Shown here piece by piece: positions 1 to 9,819 of a stretch of DNA of 64,000 bases (positions within the stretch are counted from its first letter, which is position 1; each line of letters begins with the position of its first letter). The notes beneath the pieces are model-generated. The model did not search any database. It was given only the letters and a program-made list of their open reading frames with translations, and had not been told where the DNA came from. Origin of the DNA: Patescibacteria group bacterium UBA6241 (GTDB lineage: Bacteria > Patescibacteriota > Minisyncoccia > Phycocordibacterales > Phycocordibacteraceae); the NCBI GenBank assembly GCA_002441425.1, contig DJWB01000001.1, positions 298,712 to 362,711 of the forward strand, in the 5' to 3' direction. A program made the position numbers and the translations under genes.

Positions 1-459
1 CAGGTTCACCCAGATGAAAAGTTTGTGGTCGTTATCGATGAGCCAGAGAACCACCTTCATCCTGAGATGCAGAGAACTCTATTAAGAGATTTTATTAATG
101 CATTTCCTCATGTTCAGTTTATAGTCTCTACTCACAACCCATTCATAGTTACCTCTTTATCGAATTCGAATGTCTTTGCACTGAAATATAACGAGGAGAA
201 TAAAGTAGAAAGTGAGAGACTAGATTTATTTGAAAAAGCAGGCTCTTCCAACGAAATTCTACGAGATGTACTTGGTCTCGATACTGCTCTTCCTCTATGG
301 GTAGAGCAACAGCTCGAGGAGGTTATTTCAAGATACTCAGCAATGAAGTTTGAGGATGAGACCTTCGTGCAGCTCAGGAAGGAACTTAAGGAGTCGGGTC
401 TAGACAGAATGGTGCCAGAAACTATCGCGCGGATAGCTGAAAAGAATACCGATGATTAA
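1..459 (+). CDS. ptuA: Septu PtuA-like AAA ATPase, C-terminal part (5' truncated by window edge)
   Basis: Frame is open from nt 1 (QVHPDEKFVVVIDEPENHLHPEMQ...). The Walker-B/D-loop-like motif 'VVIDEPENHLHP' followed by 'VSTHNP' is typical of AAA_15/AAA_21 (OLD/ABC-like) abortive-infection ATPases. An HNH partner gene follows immediately with a 4-nt overlap. Confidence 0.6.
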   Translation, partial: QVHPDEKFVVVIDEPENHLHPEMQRTLLRDFINAFPHVQFIVSTHNPFIVTSLSNSNVFALKYNEENKVESERLDLFEKAGSSNEILRDVLGLDTALPLWVEQQLEEVISRYSAMKFEDETFVQLRKELKESGLDRMVPETIARIAEKNTDD

Positions 460-1096
460 ATTAAACAAAACCGGCGAGCCAGACGTTCTGTTACGCAATA
501 AGGCTTCTTGGACGGCTGAGTACCTGAGACAAGTCGCAGCGGGCCGAGGAGTCTCTCCAACAGTAGCTGGGCGGTATCGCCACGAAGATATCAAGTCGCA
601 GCTCGTTACAGAAACCTCAGGCAAGTGCGCATATTGCGAAAGTAAGATGCTGCACGTTGCATTTGGAGACATAGAGCATATCCGGCCAAAATCCGTGAAC
701 CCTGACCTAACGTTTGAATGGGAAAACCTGACGTTAGTATGTTCAGTCTGCAATAACAACAAGCGAGACTACGATTCTCCTACTGAGCCGCTAATAAATC
801 CTTACATTGATAACCCATCTGACCATTTACGTGCTTACGGGCCGATGGTTTGGCCTAAAACGGATAGCATCCGGGGCGATTTAACAGAAAAACTCTTAGG
901 TCTAAATCGAAAAGAACTTTTCGAACGAAGGAAGGAGCGCTTGGAAAGTCTGATGCATCTTATTGAGAACTGGACACGAGAAACGAATCAAACTCGGAAG
1001 GACATCCTACAAAGACAGATTCTTGAAGAATCTAAGGAGGATAAAGAGTTCAGTCTAGTGATTAAGACGTTTCTTGAAGACTCTAAAATCATTTAG
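452..1096 (+). CDS. ptuB: Septu PtuB-like HNH endonuclease
   Basis: HNH motif CAYCE...HVAFGDIEHIRPKS...NLTLVCSVCNNNK (Cys-pair, His, Asn, second Cys-pair). It is translationally coupled to the upstream ATPase. ATPase plus HNH is the Septu architecture. Confidence 0.65.
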   Translation: MIKLNKTGEPDVLLRNKASWTAEYLRQVAAGRGVSPTVAGRYRHEDIKSQLVTETSGKCAYCESKMLHVAFGDIEHIRPKSVNPDLTFEWENLTLVCSVCNNNKRDYDSPTEPLINPYIDNPSDHLRAYGPMVWPKTDSIRGDLTEKLLGLNRKELFERRKERLESLMHLIENWTRETNQTRKDILQRQILEESKEDKEFSLVIKTFLEDSKII

Positions 1097-1107
1097 CCTT
1101 CTTACGA

Positions 1108-2643
1108 ATGGACGAGAAGGAAAAGAAAGACGAGCTATATAGGGCTTACAAGCCTCTCCGCAACCATCTGAGGAAGCTCAGTGTACCCGAGTCACTCCTA
1201 GTTCTTTGGCATTACCTACGCCATCTCCATTCAGGAAATACGGAATTTCCTGACATAGACGTAAGCCAAGAGTTTTTGGAAGCCGACCATATACAGAAGC
1301 GACGTGGCATATCCGAATGGGATTTAGAAATACTAATCCGAGAAGTCATCATTCATGGCTGGTCTTGGGATGAGGACCAGAAAACGCTTCGCAAAGGCAA
1401 CTATCTGGCTGGAGCAGTCAATAAATTAAAGGACATTAATGGGAGCATCTCAAAGCTATATATCAATAAGGACAATGTGCTAAAGGAGATGGCACGTCTT
1501 TCGCACCAGCAGTTCATGTGGGTCATAAAGAAACCGACCATGAACTCTTTTACGAGGTATTACAAGATTTTTAGTGCACCTGGCCTAGATACATTACTTG
1601 AAAGCCATTTTGAACTGACCATACAGGAGATATTTATTTTTGCTTCTGCTGTATGGGGCTATTTCCAGAACAAGGCAGCACTCGACAATCCACCAAAGAT
1701 TCAAATTCTAAATCTTACGCCAGAAGATTTTGAGAAGTTCGTATCTAAGTTCACCAAAGATTGCGAATCTCTGCGTGAAGACATGCTCGCCTCGAGAAAA
1801 ATTGACGACCGTTTCTTTTACGACTTCAATCCTTTGCGCCGATACCCCCTGATAAGCATGAGGTACTTTGGAAAGGATAGTATCGTGTGTCCCGACCCAA
1901 CTATTTTATACTGGCGGCTTACCGACGGCATTTACTACGAATTGTTCGATAAACCCGGTTTCAGTGAACCTTTTGGAACTTCATTTGAGAATTATGTTGG
2001 TGAGGTCTTAGAGAAAACTTGTGGCGCCTTCAGTATTCTAAAAGAGGAAGAATATGGACCTAAACGAGACCGAAAGAAATCTATTGACTGGATAGTGGAT
2101 GCAGGTCGAGATGCACTTTTTATTGAGTGTAAGACCAAGCGAATGCGCCACAACGCAAAAGCGGAACTTCTTTCTAATGAAGTACAGGAAGCGGACTTGG
2201 AAAAGATGGCCGACTTTGTCGTACAAGCTTATAAAAGTATCCGAGACTACAAAGCCAGAAAGTATCCTCATTTGGCTTACAGATGGAGACGACGTGTGTA
2301 CCCGATGATAGTTACCTTGGAAGACTGGATGATATTCGGTGACTATCTTATGGGACAACTCGACAGCATGATAAGGACAAAGATGCAGACAGAAAATCTA
2401 CCGCTTTGGTATCTCGAGGCTATGCCCTATTCGATATGCCCCATTCAGACTTTTGAGAACCTAATTCAGGTAATAGCTGAGAAAGGTATCCATGATGTAG
2501 TTGCTGATAAGTGCAGAGATGACGACAAGAAGCTCTGGGATTATTCCGCCTATGCACCCGACAAGTATCCGGAAGAGTGGAAGAAGTGCTCTTTCCTCTT
2601 CGAAGAAGATTTTGAAAAGATACTACCTCCCGAGTTCTACTAA
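1108..2643 (+). CDS. Uncharacterised 511-aa protein with putative PD-(D/E)xK-like nuclease motif in C-terminal half
   Basis: Long clean ORF with no family I recognise. The segment '...ENYVGEVLEK...IDWIVDAGRDALFIECKTKR' fits an E...D...ExK restriction-endonuclease-fold pattern. It sits 12 nt after ptuB and ahead of the R-M module, inside the low-GC island. Confidence 0.55.
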   Translation: MDEKEKKDELYRAYKPLRNHLRKLSVPESLLVLWHYLRHLHSGNTEFPDIDVSQEFLEADHIQKRRGISEWDLEILIREVIIHGWSWDEDQKTLRKGNYLAGAVNKLKDINGSISKLYINKDNVLKEMARLSHQQFMWVIKKPTMNSFTRYYKIFSAPGLDTLLESHFELTIQEIFIFASAVWGYFQNKAALDNPPKIQILNLTPEDFEKFVSKFTKDCESLREDMLASRKIDDRFFYDFNPLRRYPLISMRYFGKDSIVCPDPTILYWRLTDGIYYELFDKPGFSEPFGTSFENYVGEVLEKTCGAFSILKEEEYGPKRDRKKSIDWIVDAGRDALFIECKTKRMRHNAKAELLSNEVQEADLEKMADFVVQAYKSIRDYKARKYPHLAYRWRRRVYPMIVTLEDWMIFGDYLMGQLDSMIRTKMQTENLPLWYLEAMPYSICPIQTFENLIQVIAEKGIHDVVADKCRDDDKKLWDYSAYAPDKYPEEWKKCSFLFEEDFEKILPPEFY

Positions 2644-2981
2644 TTACTTACCCTCAGATATTTGTAATGACCGTATAGAGCAGGTGTGTAGTAGTGGGCA
2701 AAGAAAAAGAATTGTCCTACAAATGCTCCACACTCCTTACAGACGTTTGCCAAGTAGGTCTCTTCTGAAGTCTTGCTAAATATAGTCTTAAGAAGGACAC
2801 CGTGCTCCTCTGCCAACGATACTTCTTCATTGGAAAAGCCTTCCGGTCCTCCATATAGATTTCCTGCGTTATCTCCAATCAGCGCAATAAGCATTGGTTT
2901 ATCGCACTGCCAACACTCGGCACTGATTATCATCATTTGTCCTTCTGGTTCGTCCATTCCGGCTATTATACAGAATTCCAA
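2640..2981 (-). CDS. Small hypothetical protein (113 aa), Cys-containing
   Basis: ORF convergent with the 511-aa gene. Contains CWQC...CKEC pairs that could bind zinc. No homology recognised. Confidence 0.3.
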   Translation of the reverse strand: MEFCIIAGMDEPEGQMMIISAECWQCDKPMLIALIGDNAGNLYGGPEGFSNEEVSLAEEHGVLLKTIFSKTSEETYLANVCKECGAFVGQFFFFAHYYTPALYGHYKYLRVSN

Positions 2982-3395
2982 TAAACCGATATCCCTTCAA
3001 AACCAAGGAAATTCTCCTCTAATATTGGGCATCCTCCCGCGCGTACAAATTGCTCCATTAAAACACCCACCACCTATTCGGACTTGTGTTCGGATTTGCG
3101 ATAAGTTAAGAACCTCGAAGCACGGCTTACCCACTCTTGAGGCTGCTCTTGTCTACTCTCTCCTAAGGCTCTCTGTAGCCAGCAGTCGGTCAACGGGTAG
3201 AGGAATACGAGAATACAGATAGAAAGCCTCGTATCTCGCGAAGTGACTCCGTAGGATATGGGAATACGTCTTCCCAAGGAATAGTTCGTAAGTTCTCCCT
3301 CCAAGCGAGCCAGACATAATAAGAAATAGAGGCTCGACAAGAATCTGAGAAGAACTCGCGAAGCGAAAAGTGTCTCAGGTGATGTTATTTTCACT

Positions 3396-3515
3396 ATGGA
3401 CTATAGTAGCCTTAGAAGTACCAACGATACAGAGAACCGAATAGCACCCCCTCTTGAGACAATTTCTAAACTTGCCAAGGTGCTCGATTTAAGTACCGCA
3501 GAACTGCTAAAATAG
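3396..3515 (+). pseudogene. Remnant of XRE-family HTH (controller-protein-like) gene, C-terminal fragment only
   Basis: 39-codon ORF MDYSSLRSTNDTENRIAPPLETISKLAKVLDLSTAELLK* matches the recognition-helix and C-terminal half of Cro/C1-type HTH domains (...RIENGKRNPSLETLIKIAKALDVSLDELL). All three upstream frames are closed by stops. It ends 5 nt before the methyltransferase ATG. Confidence 0.35.
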
Positions 3516-3519
3516 AGTT

Positions 3520-4476
3520 ATGACTACGCAACAAGCAATCATAAAACTCGCAAATGAGTTGAATATCAATAGTATCTACGCACGCCATGTTTTCCATACT
3601 GCAGATAAGACACGATTGTTTGAAGATGCAACACGAATTGTCAACGAGAAACCAAAGCCGTTCGTGAAATGGGTGGGCGGCAAAAGACAGTTACTCCGCC
3701 AATTTCGTGATATGGGATTATATCCGCCTGATGATTTTGATCCTGTCACAAATACTTACTTTGAGCCATTTGTCGGGGGTGGAGCCGTCTTTTTCGACCT
3801 ACTCCCAAAAAAGGCAGAACTTTCTGATTTAAATAATGAACTTGTAACAACATACAATGTCATCAAAAATGACGTTGATGAACTAATCAAATCACTCAAA
3901 AAGCATAAGTACGAAAAAGAATACTATCTTAAAGTACGCGCAAAAAATCCAAAAAGTTTGTCAGATCTTAATGTTGCATCTCGGTTCATCTACCTAAATC
4001 GTACTTGTTTCAATGGTATGTACCGGGTGAACAGCAAAGGTGGTTTCAATGTGCCCTTTGGCAAATATACAAATCCTATAATTTGCGACGAAGAAAACTT
4101 AATCAAAGCGTCAAAAGCACTACAAAAAGTAACTATCAAAAATCAGGATTATAAAAAAGTCCTTGAAAAGGCAGGGAAAGGTGACTTTGTGTATTTTGAT
4201 CCACCTTATTATCCAGTAAGCAAAACTGCCTCGTTCACTTCGTACACAGCAGACACATTCTTGGAAAAAGAGCAGTTGGAATTACGAGATGTATTTATAG
4301 AATTACACAAGCGTGACTGTTTTGTCATGCTTTCAAATTCCGATACTCCTTTAATCAATGAACTTTACTCAAATATCAAAGGAGTGAAAGTATCAAAAGT
4401 AGCCGCTGGGCGTGCGATAAACTCAAACGCAGCAAAGCGTGGAAAAATTAGCGAGGTATTAGTAACTAACTACTGA
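3520..4476 (+). CDS. Dam-family N6-adenine DNA methyltransferase (M.MboIA/DpnM-like, GATC-type)
   Basis: Motifs 'KWVGGKRQLL' and 'FEPFVGGGAVFFD' (AdoMet binding) plus 'DPPY' catalytic motif. This is the D12-class Dam signature. Confidence 0.85.
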   Translation: MTTQQAIIKLANELNINSIYARHVFHTADKTRLFEDATRIVNEKPKPFVKWVGGKRQLLRQFRDMGLYPPDDFDPVTNTYFEPFVGGGAVFFDLLPKKAELSDLNNELVTTYNVIKNDVDELIKSLKKHKYEKEYYLKVRAKNPKSLSDLNVASRFIYLNRTCFNGMYRVNSKGGFNVPFGKYTNPIICDEENLIKASKALQKVTIKNQDYKKVLEKAGKGDFVYFDPPYYPVSKTASFTSYTADTFLEKEQLELRDVFIELHKRDCFVMLSNSDTPLINELYSNIKGVKVSKVAAGRAINSNAAKRGKISEVLVTNY

Positions 4477-4481
4477 ACGAC

Positions 4482-5342
4482 ATGAATAAAACATTTACAG
4501 AACTGATAGATGGTTTCAAAAGCTCCATAAAAACGTGGGATTATTTTGTAAATTGGGACAAAGTGCAAGCAAACTCTGCCGATCTTGAAATTTCGCTCAA
4601 TAAACTGAATTACTTACTTGGTAAAGAGAATCTCAAAGATGAATTTGCTAAACTTTACGAATCAAATCCCGATATTGTAAAAGCATTACCTGTTTTGCTT
4701 GCGGTACGAGAGAACAAGTTAGAAATTTTTGATAAAACTACAAAGGAATCAGAGTTTTTTGATTTTTCCATAGGCAAAGATGACGCAGAAAAGTATTCTG
4801 AGTTTATTGAAAAGTCTGGACTAGCTCGTTTGTTTCAAAAGGACGGGATCAAAAATCTTGTTGATTATGTTATTGGGGTTGAAGTTGGTTTAGATAGCAA
4901 TGGACGTAAAAACCGTGGCGGTACGCTTATGGAGAAAATTGTTGGAACGTATATCAAAGATTTTGCCGAAGAACACGGTTTTGAATATCTTGCACAAGCA
5001 CGCGCTACAGAGATAAAGACAAGGTGGGGTTATGATGTTGAGGTTGATAAATCAGAACGAAGTTTTGATTTTGCCGTATACAATCCGCAAGCAAAGAAGC
5101 TTAAACTGTTTGAGGTAAACTTCTATAACGGAGGTGGCTCAAAACTAAAAGCAGTCTGCGGTGAATTCCGTAGTTTGTATAGCGAACTAACGAAACAAGG
5201 AATTGATTTTGTTTGGGTTACTGACGGTCTTGGTTGGAAAACAGCAAAACGACCGTTAGAAGAAACCTTTAATCACAACAACGGAGAAATCTTTAATCTT
5301 AATATGCTTGAAGATAGGGTCTTGGAGGAGCTAACTTGGTAA
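4482..5342 (+). CDS. Type II restriction endonuclease, DpnII/MboI family (inferred from position and size)
   Basis: 286 aa (DpnII is ~288 aa). It is sandwiched between two methyltransferases with 5-nt and 4-nt spacers. This matches the mboIAM-mboIR-mboICM gene order. Confidence 0.55.
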   Translation: MNKTFTELIDGFKSSIKTWDYFVNWDKVQANSADLEISLNKLNYLLGKENLKDEFAKLYESNPDIVKALPVLLAVRENKLEIFDKTTKESEFFDFSIGKDDAEKYSEFIEKSGLARLFQKDGIKNLVDYVIGVEVGLDSNGRKNRGGTLMEKIVGTYIKDFAEEHGFEYLAQARATEIKTRWGYDVEVDKSERSFDFAVYNPQAKKLKLFEVNFYNGGGSKLKAVCGEFRSLYSELTKQGIDFVWVTDGLGWKTAKRPLEETFNHNNGEIFNLNMLEDRVLEELTW

Positions 5343-5346
5343 ACAA

Positions 5347-6093
5347 ATGGCAAGGGAAATAAAACTACACCCCGAAGAATTCGATCTTGAATGCACAACG
5401 GTGTGGGCTTTTCCAAGGCGTGGAAATTGGGCAACTCACAAATCTGATTGGCGCGGAAATTGGTCGCCAGAAGTTGCACGTAATCTTATTCTCCGATATT
5501 CCAACGAGGGCGATATTTTACTCGATCCGATGATTGGTGGTGGGACAACAGCGATTGAAGCAAAGATACTCAATCGCAATATTATCTGTTCTGATGTGAA
5601 TGATATTGCGCTAGAACGAACGAAAGAAAGTTTGAGATTTGAGGTTGAAAACAAAGCGTGGCAAAAGATTGTCAAGCGCGATGCTCGCAACCTTAACAAA
5701 GCTGAAAATGAAAGTATTGATTTTATTCTCACACACCCACCCTATGCCGACATTATCAAATACAGTGAAGGAGAAATTGACGAGGACCTTTCAAATATAC
5801 ATGAAATAGAGGAGTTTGCTGACGAAATGGAGAAAGTCGCAAATGAATTGTATCGAGTTCTTAAGCCTGGTAAATTTTGTGCAATTTTAATTGGCGATAC
5901 ACGCCGACAAAAGATGTATCAGCCACTTGCATATCGGGTTATGGACCGATTCCTAAATGCAGGATTTAACCTCAAGGAGGACATAATAAAGCGCCAATTT
6001 AACTGCAAAGCAACTGGCTTTTGGGTCGAGAAATCTAAACAAGGCAATTTTTTGTTAATAATGCATGAGCATCTGTTTGTGTTTCAAAAATAA
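5347..6093 (+). CDS. Second DNA methyltransferase (N4/N6 MTase family, DpnA/M.MboIC-like)
   Basis: Motif I 'DPMIGGGTT' and motif IV 'THPPY'. Small (248 aa) ParB-type N6/N4 methylase, as in the DpnII/MboI cassettes. Confidence 0.75.
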   Translation: MAREIKLHPEEFDLECTTVWAFPRRGNWATHKSDWRGNWSPEVARNLILRYSNEGDILLDPMIGGGTTAIEAKILNRNIICSDVNDIALERTKESLRFEVENKAWQKIVKRDARNLNKAENESIDFILTHPPYADIIKYSEGEIDEDLSNIHEIEEFADEMEKVANELYRVLKPGKFCAILIGDTRRQKMYQPLAYRVMDRFLNAGFNLKEDIIKRQFNCKATGFWVEKSKQGNFLLIMHEHLFVFQK

Positions 6094-9318: not shown

Positions 9319-9819
9319 ATGAATACGCTCTCACTCTTCTATCCAGTTGCCCCGCATGTGGTAACCCGCCCATGGGGTGTTGCGGATGAATTGTATAAAG
9401 AGTTCGGCTTTAAGAAGCACAACGGAGTGGACCTCGCACTTGGCGAAGGACAAGAAATAAGAGCTCCGTTTGATTGCACTGTTACCTTAGTTGGAAACCA
9501 GCCAAAGGGATCTGGTCTATTTGTCTGTCTTCTTTCAACAGCTACGTATGACTTCCCAGACGGGGTACGTGCCCGCGTTGAGCTTTCTTGCATGCACCTT
9601 TCCCGCGTATCTGTTACACCTGGCACCAGACTTGGAGTTGGTATGGTGTTTGCATACGGAGGACACACCGGAAGAGCCACTGGCCCTCACGTACATATTG
9701 CACCTAAACGAGTGCGTCGCGGACTTATTGGATATCGTGATATAGATCGCAACGATGCGAACAACACGTTTGATCCTGAGCCGTATTGGAACCAGGAGTA
9801 TGCGAGAACCGCTTCTTAA
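9319..9819 (+). CDS. M23 family metallopeptidase (LytM domain)
   Basis: HxxxD...HxH pattern: 'HNGVDLA' and 'GPHVHI'. Confidence 0.75.
   Translation: MNTLSLFYPVAPHVVTRPWGVADELYKEFGFKKHNGVDLALGEGQEIRAPFDCTVTLVGNQPKGSGLFVCLLSTATYDFPDGVRARVELSCMHLSRVSVTPGTRLGVGMVFAYGGHTGRATGPHVHIAPKRVRRGLIGYRDIDRNDANNTFDPEPYWNQEYARTAS

Follow-up and report, generated by a model that had tools for sequence, protein, structure and literature searches.

A GapS1-like gene beside Septu on a genomic island of a Patescibacteria host, a probable stand-alone member of the GAPS1 defence superfamily

This work concerns a gene encoding a protein of 511 amino acids (aa) in a stretch of 64,000 nucleotides (nt) from the genome of Patescibacteria group bacterium UBA6241 (contig DJWB01000001.1), referred to below as the window. 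The host belongs to Candidatus Paceibacterota/Parcubacteria, within the candidate phyla radiation (CPR), and the RpoB encoded in the window is 92% identical to that of named metagenome-assembled genomes of this group. The gene lies near the start of the window between the Septu system and a GATC restriction-modification (R-M) module, and both neighbours, already named in an initial annotation, were confirmed by Pfam and PADLOC. That annotation proposed a candidate new defence gene. The gene does not represent a new type of system: its product is a divergent relative of the known single-protein system GAPS1 (GapS1) and belongs to a divergent clade of that defence family which is common among CPR bacteria. 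Contigs of 608 kb (ENA) and 89 kb (JGI) code for the identical protein (P0001), and the window is identical in sequence to the 608-kb ENA contig across their overlap. The gene and the relevant parts of its product are listed below, where A1 denotes an alignment of 62 homologs and A3 a divergent alignment of the superfamily.

1108..2643, plus strand: GapS1-like gene, 511 aa, coordinates including the stop codon (open reading frame (ORF) call)
1108..1827, plus strand: N-terminal region, aa 1-240, almost all-alpha-helical in the AlphaFold2 secondary structure, with invariant E79, E127, R130 and W138
1495..1524, plus strand: R130-x2-H133-x-Q135-F-x-W138-Q/V139, the most conserved N-terminal motif by A1 column counts
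1840..2487, plus strand: PD-(D/E)xK (restriction-endonuclease-like) core, about aa 245-460
2086..2088, plus strand: codon of D327, the predicted catalytic aspartate, in the peptide SIDW; 62/62 in A1 and invariant in A3
2125..2133, plus strand: codons of E340-C341-K342, the (D/E)xK of the predicted active site; E340 and K342 each 62/62 in A1

GAPS1 was described in 2023-24 as a single-protein defence system on Gamma-Mobile-Trio (GMT) islands of Vibrio (bioRxiv 10.1101/2023.03.28.534373). Scans of the 511-aa protein against Pfam and PADLOC-DB 2.0.0 (2023) gave nothing significant, the sole match being PADLOC CARF_PDDEXK (E 0.0017, 30 residues), and the earlier label "uncharacterised" is accurate for these two resources only; in NCBIfam of 2026 there is a significant GapS1 match. 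This is the single significant match in release 20, to NF047931 "antiphage_GapS1" (E 3.6e-26, 92.1 bits), and it aligns in one stretch, with aa 103-474 placed against profile positions 66-443 of 455 (378 positions, 83%). Of the 62 homologs in A1, 55 match this model alone (best E 3.2e-31), and so do seven divergent plasmid relatives at 42-94 bits, whose hosts are Pseudomonas, Thioclava, Nostoc, Rhodococcus, Sinorhizobium, Streptomyces and Geminocystis. A tblastn search against plasmids and phages yielded further relatives, all below the GapS1 threshold. Fragments of the protein scored as follows against the GapS1 model.

aa 100-511: 92.5 bits
aa 241-511: 60 bits
aa 100-300: 57 bits (E 1.4e-15), against the collinear profile positions 67-271
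aa 286-511 (226 aa): 41 bits

The 57 bits of aa 100-300, a fragment that lies N-terminal to the catalytic D/ExK, show that the match extends beyond the catalytic core. The authors of GAPS1 defined homologs by a position-specific scoring matrix (PSSM) from PSI-BLAST, used in RPS-BLAST with E <= 1e-15 and coverage >= 70% (bioRxiv 10.1101/2023.03.28.534373); with the NCBIfam hidden Markov model (HMM) as a stand-in for their PSSM, the analogous figures of the present protein would pass. The protein thus very probably belongs to the GAPS1 superfamily as judged from profile similarity, outside the GapS1 subfamily curated by NCBI. Some of the most distant plasmid relatives (H54, H64 and H71, from Streptomyces and Kitasatospora) are annotated as "nuclease-related domain-containing protein" (NERD), a hint that among PD-(D/E)xK enzymes the NERD branch is the closest to the nuclease domain of GapS1; Pfam NERD gave no match to the window protein.

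The homolog search returned 334 matches, mostly with 35-46% identity over 96-100% of the query, none of them functionally named. An AlphaFold2 model built with A1 (pLDDT, the predicted local distance difference test, 94.6; pTM, the predicted template modelling score, 0.92) places an alpha/beta core after the helical N-terminus, which extends to about aa 240, and ends in a helical C-terminal tail. Strand 328-331 begins at D327 and strand 335-342 ends with E340-x-K342, and the model has the alpha-beta-beta-beta-alpha-beta core, the acidic residue starting strand 2 and the (D/E)xK in strand 3 that define the PD-(D/E)xK fold. This high-confidence model, together with fold searches, supports the nuclease fold that had been suspected, and the protein is by its predicted fold a PD-(D/E)xK nuclease. 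Sequence searches of the PDB with the single protein and with the 62-sequence profile gave no match, and a fold search of BFVD gave nothing at E <= 1e-3 and no full-length structural relative.

The active site had been read as E...D-(x6)-E-C-K from three peptides, all of which are present: ENYVGEVLEK (aa 294-303), WIVDAGRD (aa 328-335) and ALFIECKTK (aa 336-344). The aspartate, however, had been misplaced, as D331 and D335 in WIVDAGRD are variable among the A1 homologs; the predicted catalytic residue is D327, and the spacing becomes D327-x12-E340-C-K342. K342 is also invariant in A3, where E340 is nearly so. E299, on the preceding helix, is E or D in 55/62 of A1 and probably adds to the nuclease site alongside D327, E340 and K342. 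No motif had been recognised in the N-terminal ~300 aa, but the N-terminal part has the invariant residues listed above and the R-x2-H-x-Q-F-x-W-Q motif, from which the family pattern R[ILM]xH[RQ]QF[PIV]WQ was taken and in which Q135 is nearly invariant in A3. We infer that aa 1-240 form the sensor or regulatory part of the protein.

To the question of partners, the loci of other homologs give a consistent answer. The comparison covered nine homologs and plasmid relatives together with 80 GTDB species representatives, and PtuA or PtuB was found within 6-8 kb at 0/89 of these loci, as was DpnII (0/89). When the proteins of the island that carries the gene were searched by tblastn against 92 other loci, PtuA, PtuB, the Dam methyltransferase (MTase) and DpnII were each found at 0, the second MTase at one other locus, fetched twice, and the large serine recombinase in 11 loci, of which ~10 are distinct and most are from CPR bacteria. 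Each Pfam or PADLOC family is represented at most twice among 150 immediate neighbours of homologs. Some of these neighbours are housekeeping genes, others are integrases, resolvases or transposases, and the defence genes among them are restriction endonucleases of type III and type II (REases; REase_III), MTases, SoFic, PD-T4-1 and PDC candidates. A Tardiphaga locus carries TIR, WYL and YaaC beside the homolog and a Methylocystis locus carries Dcm+Vsr, DUF87, a relaxase and ParE; a fused MTase is present at one individual locus and a tyrosine integrase at another, while among the plasmid copies one adjoins SSB and RecT and one a transposase/ParB block. The closest homolog (75% identity) stands alone beside mur and penicillin-binding protein (PBP) genes, and the next (58%) alone beside an AdoHcy hydrolase gene. 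The neighbours of the homologs vary and often are defence or mobile genes; no neighbour family is conserved, and many immediate neighbours are housekeeping genes. Because neither PtuA/PtuB nor DpnII is nearby elsewhere and no neighbour family recurs, the gene is a stand-alone gene and not a third Septu component; of the three options originally offered (a third Septu component, a stand-alone effector or a new system), the stand-alone effector was the correct choice. The gene forms a self-contained single-gene unit that passes from genome to genome, in keeping with GAPS1 biology.

The distribution of the family is patchy. An exhaustive profile search of 1.84 billion representatives returned 776 clusters (at 50% identity, as are all cluster counts here) with E <= 1e-30, 2,068 with E <= 1e-10 and 3,412 with E <= 1e-3; many of the 776 are from CPR/Patescibacteria and all are without a name in public sources. 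Species representatives include many CPR lineages, Nitrospirota, Nitrospina, Methylomirabilota, Akkermansia, Alpha-, Beta- and Gammaproteobacteria, Bacteroidota, Anaerolineaceae and one Woesearchaeote, and plasmid copies are found in Pseudomonas, Cupriavidus, Caballeronia, Sphingobium and others. Relatives of the window RpoB at 85-92% identity are plentiful, whereas the nearest homolog of the 511-aa protein is 75% identical, the next 58% and the rest <=46%; judged from these sequence comparisons, the pattern is that of an accessory, horizontally acquired gene. A phage-borne origin was considered and rejected, as BFVD was empty at the threshold given above and the viral contigs of IMG/VR hold only seven weak-to-moderate relatives in 2.9 million.

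The surroundings of the gene extend beyond the start of the window into a wider locus (L001; window position = L001 position - 8893) and comprise the following features.

L001 4946..6562: tRNA-Asn and 527-aa large serine recombinase, ~2.3-3.9 kb before the window start
25..459, plus strand: 3' part of Septu ptuA, cut by the window start (PADLOC PtuA, 2e-63); context, not part of the system
452..1096, plus strand: ptuB (HNH) (PADLOC PtuB, 4.5e-81); context, not part of the system
2640..2981, minus strand: small CxxC...CxxC protein, 113-aa ORF; independent gene, context
3520..4476, plus strand: Dam-like MTase, D12 class (Pfam, PADLOC)
4482..5342, plus strand: DpnII-family REase (Pfam, 3e-93)
5347..6093, plus strand: N6_N4 MTase (Pfam, PADLOC)

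In the wider locus the left end of the island is formed by the tRNA-Asn adjoining the recombinase, followed by a DUF805 protein and by the full-length ptuA (415 aa when uncut), with the housekeeping gene mgtE at the right end. The island is ~10 kb long, is integrated next to tRNA-Asn and carries as cargo Septu PtuAB, the GapS1-like gene and the DpnII-type R-M. Its distinct composition, noted earlier, was borne out, with a guanine-plus-cytosine (GC) content of 0.36-0.45 across the island genes versus 0.46-0.53 in the flanks. The distance from the ptuB stop to the ATG of the 511-aa gene is 11 nt; the closeness reported before stands, and the value of 12 nt does not. No convincing long direct repeats were found around the island as att sites, as expected for serine-recombinase elements. 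Serine recombinases related to that of the island occur within 6 kb of GapS1-like genes at ~10 other loci, mostly CPR, which suggests a class of serine-recombinase islands with defence cargo in Patescibacteria. Outside the window, at L001 7693..7737, a perfect 18-bp inverted repeat (CCTAAGGTGCTTTAGTTC ... GAACTAAAGCACCTTAGG) with an 8-nt loop can be read from the sequence; it sits in a 700-nt non-coding stretch that runs from a small minus-strand gene to ptuA.

The DpnII-family R-M module (3520..6093, plus strand) is context and an independent system, with the order MTase (D12), REase, MTase (N6_N4). Its GC content is the lowest of the island (0.36-0.41 versus 0.42-0.45 for Septu and the GapS1-like gene), and it may therefore be a separate acquisition. 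Immediately 5' of the Dam-like methylase lies a 39-aa ORF (3396..3515, plus strand) that matches only the last third of HTH_3 (XRE) (positions 33-55 of 55, E 0.0026), with stop codons in the frame upstream of it; it looks like a remnant of an R-M controller (C) protein. Between it and the small Zn-ribbon gene, positions 2982..3395 are ~410 nt with overlapping low-quality ORFs only and without a convincing ORF or Rfam match. At the Rfam gathering score the window yielded no RNA element, nor did the downstream gap of 540 nt within it. A second public copy of the locus (L002) is otherwise identical and differs from L001 by three single-A insertions (at 9744, 13029 and 13053 in L001 coordinates) and two Ns, which break up the called genes for ptuB and the Dam MTase. 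Decay of these two genes in L002 was rejected, as single-A indels and Ns in an identical sequence are most likely assembly error.

The small Cys-pair gene is convergent with the GapS1-like gene and overlaps its stop codon by 4 nt; its likely start according to the gene caller gives 105 aa (2640..2957). It had been put forward as a possible partner. The ORF is real and encodes a conserved family, with 16 homologs of 96-106 aa at 55-77% identity and no Pfam match, but the partner role did not hold: the ORF was not found at any other GapS1-like locus examined, and its homologs elsewhere adjoin a DUF559/Vsr-like gene, HEPN_Cthe2314 with large unknown proteins, or miscellaneous small genes, with no GapS1-like gene in the contexts examined. 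Since it is absent from other GapS1-like loci and has its own homologs elsewhere, never co-occurring with the GapS1-like family there, it was rejected as a partner.

In our view the 511-aa protein is probably a single-chain member of the GAPS1 superfamily that acts alone against phage, carried as island cargo beside the independent Septu PtuAB and DpnII-type R-M. The in silico basis consists of the gene and its conservation, the fold, the invariant triad, the near full-length GapS1 match, the lack of a conserved partner, the patchy distribution and the island context. A defence role for the gene is in our judgement likely. The helical N-terminal region would serve as both sensor and auto-inhibitor; recognition of a phage protein produced in the course of infection, which in GAPS1 is the major capsid protein, would relieve the inhibition and license the C-terminal PD-(D/E)xK nuclease, which would cleave nucleic acid through D327, E340, K342 and probably E299, and the infected cell would then be arrested in growth so that the phage cycle would not be completed. 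This specific chain from trigger to outcome is a tentative proposal, to which we attach somewhat less than even weight.

Several points weigh against this interpretation and have to be set beside the alternatives. The match of 92.1 bits does not reach the curated cutoff of NF047931, 320 bits, which places the protein outside the curated GapS1 subfamily, and the Prokaryotic Genome Annotation Pipeline (PGAP) would therefore not name it GapS1. The first ~100 residues lie outside the GapS1 alignment, and the fragments aa 1-240 and aa 1-285 alone gave no match to the GapS1 model; homology of the sensor region thus rests on the envelope of the full-length alignment and is weaker. The likeness to GAPS1 was drawn from the profile and from published residue positions. 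It is by homology only that an anti-phage role, a protein trigger, a substrate and dormancy as the outcome would extend to this protein, and for GAPS1 itself what is known of trigger and target is limited to capsid dependence. Many immediate neighbours of the homologs are housekeeping genes, and the defence neighbours are given as raw counts. The distance from the cutoff, the silent N-terminal 240 or 285 residues, the 41 bits of the C-terminal 226 aa alone and the lack of any Pfam, PADLOC or PDB sequence match would suit a new family that shares with GAPS1 the PD-(D/E)xK domain only, its trigger, target and even role being unrelated. This we hold to be quite unlikely, given that the HMM alignment is a single stretch over 83% of the profile, that aa 100-300 score collinearly with it and that the full length scores 92 bits versus 60 for aa 241-511, so that aa 103-240 contribute ~32 bits; length and domain order are moreover as in GAPS1, and no other PD-(D/E)xK model (NERD, Shedu, Cap4 etc.) matched. 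Unlikely, too, is that the clade is a functionally distinct sister family of GAPS1, with its own N-terminal sensor and another trigger such as a CPR phage protein. Were it true, the clade would add to the small number of abortive-infection or dormancy systems predicted for ultra-small episymbiotic bacteria, and the tight juxtaposition of the gene to ptuAB in this island could reflect co-expression and functional layering.

The remaining alternatives take their cue from the neighbourhood. A restriction-type endonuclease, either a solitary type II/IV enzyme or one working with the neighbouring MTases, would cut foreign DNA according to its sequence or modification status and not upon sensing a phage protein, which is distinctly improbable here: no MTase consistently adjoins the homologs and the DpnII module is missing from every other locus, the R-M in this island is already complete (M-R-M), the sole family-level similarity is to GapS1, and no recognisable DNA-recognition or modification-reading domain was found. 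For a nuclease serving the mobile element instead of the host, in recombination, repair or exclusion for islands and plasmids, one may cite the large serine recombinases near the gene in ~10 loci and in this island, and the plasmid copies beside SSB and RecT or beside the transposase/ParB block. Most loci, however, are without a recombinase, many copies are inserted alone among housekeeping genes, relatives are very rare on viral contigs, and the association with mobile elements is accounted for equally well by homology to a defence protein that has been validated in experiments, so that we regard such a role as very unlikely. Hardly credible, finally, is a third, accessory Septu component co-transcribed with ptuAB, since the co-occurrence test largely refutes it: the same strand, the short distance past the ptuB stop and the absence of a terminator-like site between the genes would agree with it, but PtuA and PtuB are missing from all the other homolog loci compared, the closest homologs (75% and 58%) stand alone among housekeeping genes, and a promoter-like site at 1062-1089, just upstream of the 511-aa gene, offers weak evidence in the same direction.

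The assignment to GAPS1 removes a false lead towards a new system, as the defence family was published in 2023-24 and is not covered by Pfam or PADLOC-DB 2023. It also points to a gap in annotation, since the narrowness of the curated GapS1 model leaves a large relative clade as "hypothetical protein", including many genes of Patescibacteria, a group about whose defence repertoires little is known. The genes of the clade would receive a name from a wider model or from a second subfamily model, and a representative of it would, we contend, be of use as a comparison in finding the phage-sensing part of GAPS1-type proteins.

Compared with known systems, Septu (PtuA ATPase and PtuB HNH) adjoins the gene on the same strand here and has no homology to the 511-aa protein, being a two-gene system that is complete without it. 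Card1/Can2, Shedu SduA, McrC, FokI and R.BspD6I have the catalytic fold and the D...(D/E)xK motif in common with it. Upx, too, is a single-protein nuclease that a phage protein activates (PMC13099982), and its likeness in structure (PDB 9wuf; PMC13099982) reaches beyond the nuclease core, which fits the proposed logic and is not evidence of homology; Upx differs in its 1212 aa, with dual PD-(D/E)xK domains and a middle domain, and its identity to the 511-aa protein is 9-13%, without a sequence-level match and with a query-normalised TM-score of 0.35. In GAPS1, D313 and K328 of the C-terminal PD-(D/E)xK domain are essential, the trigger acts via the T7 capsid protein Gp10 and leads to dormancy, and E. 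coli homologs only 24-29% identical are likewise protective (bioRxiv 10.1101/2023.03.28.534373). The present clade differs in its hosts (Patescibacteria/CPR, Nitrospirota, Alpha/Betaproteobacteria and others versus Vibrio, Klebsiella and E. coli) and in its tRNA-Asn/serine-recombinase island here versus a GMT island, and the data on trigger, target and phenotype come from GAPS1 of Vibrio and E. coli. Both are single proteins of ~450-530 aa without a partner (511 aa here versus a 455-position profile and a 532-aa Klebsiella homolog), with a PD-(D/E)xK domain in the C-terminal half, carriage on mobile or defence islands, a patchy, horizontally transferred distribution, a collinear HMM match over most of the model and the same D-to-K spacing of 15 (D313/K328 there and D327/K342 here).

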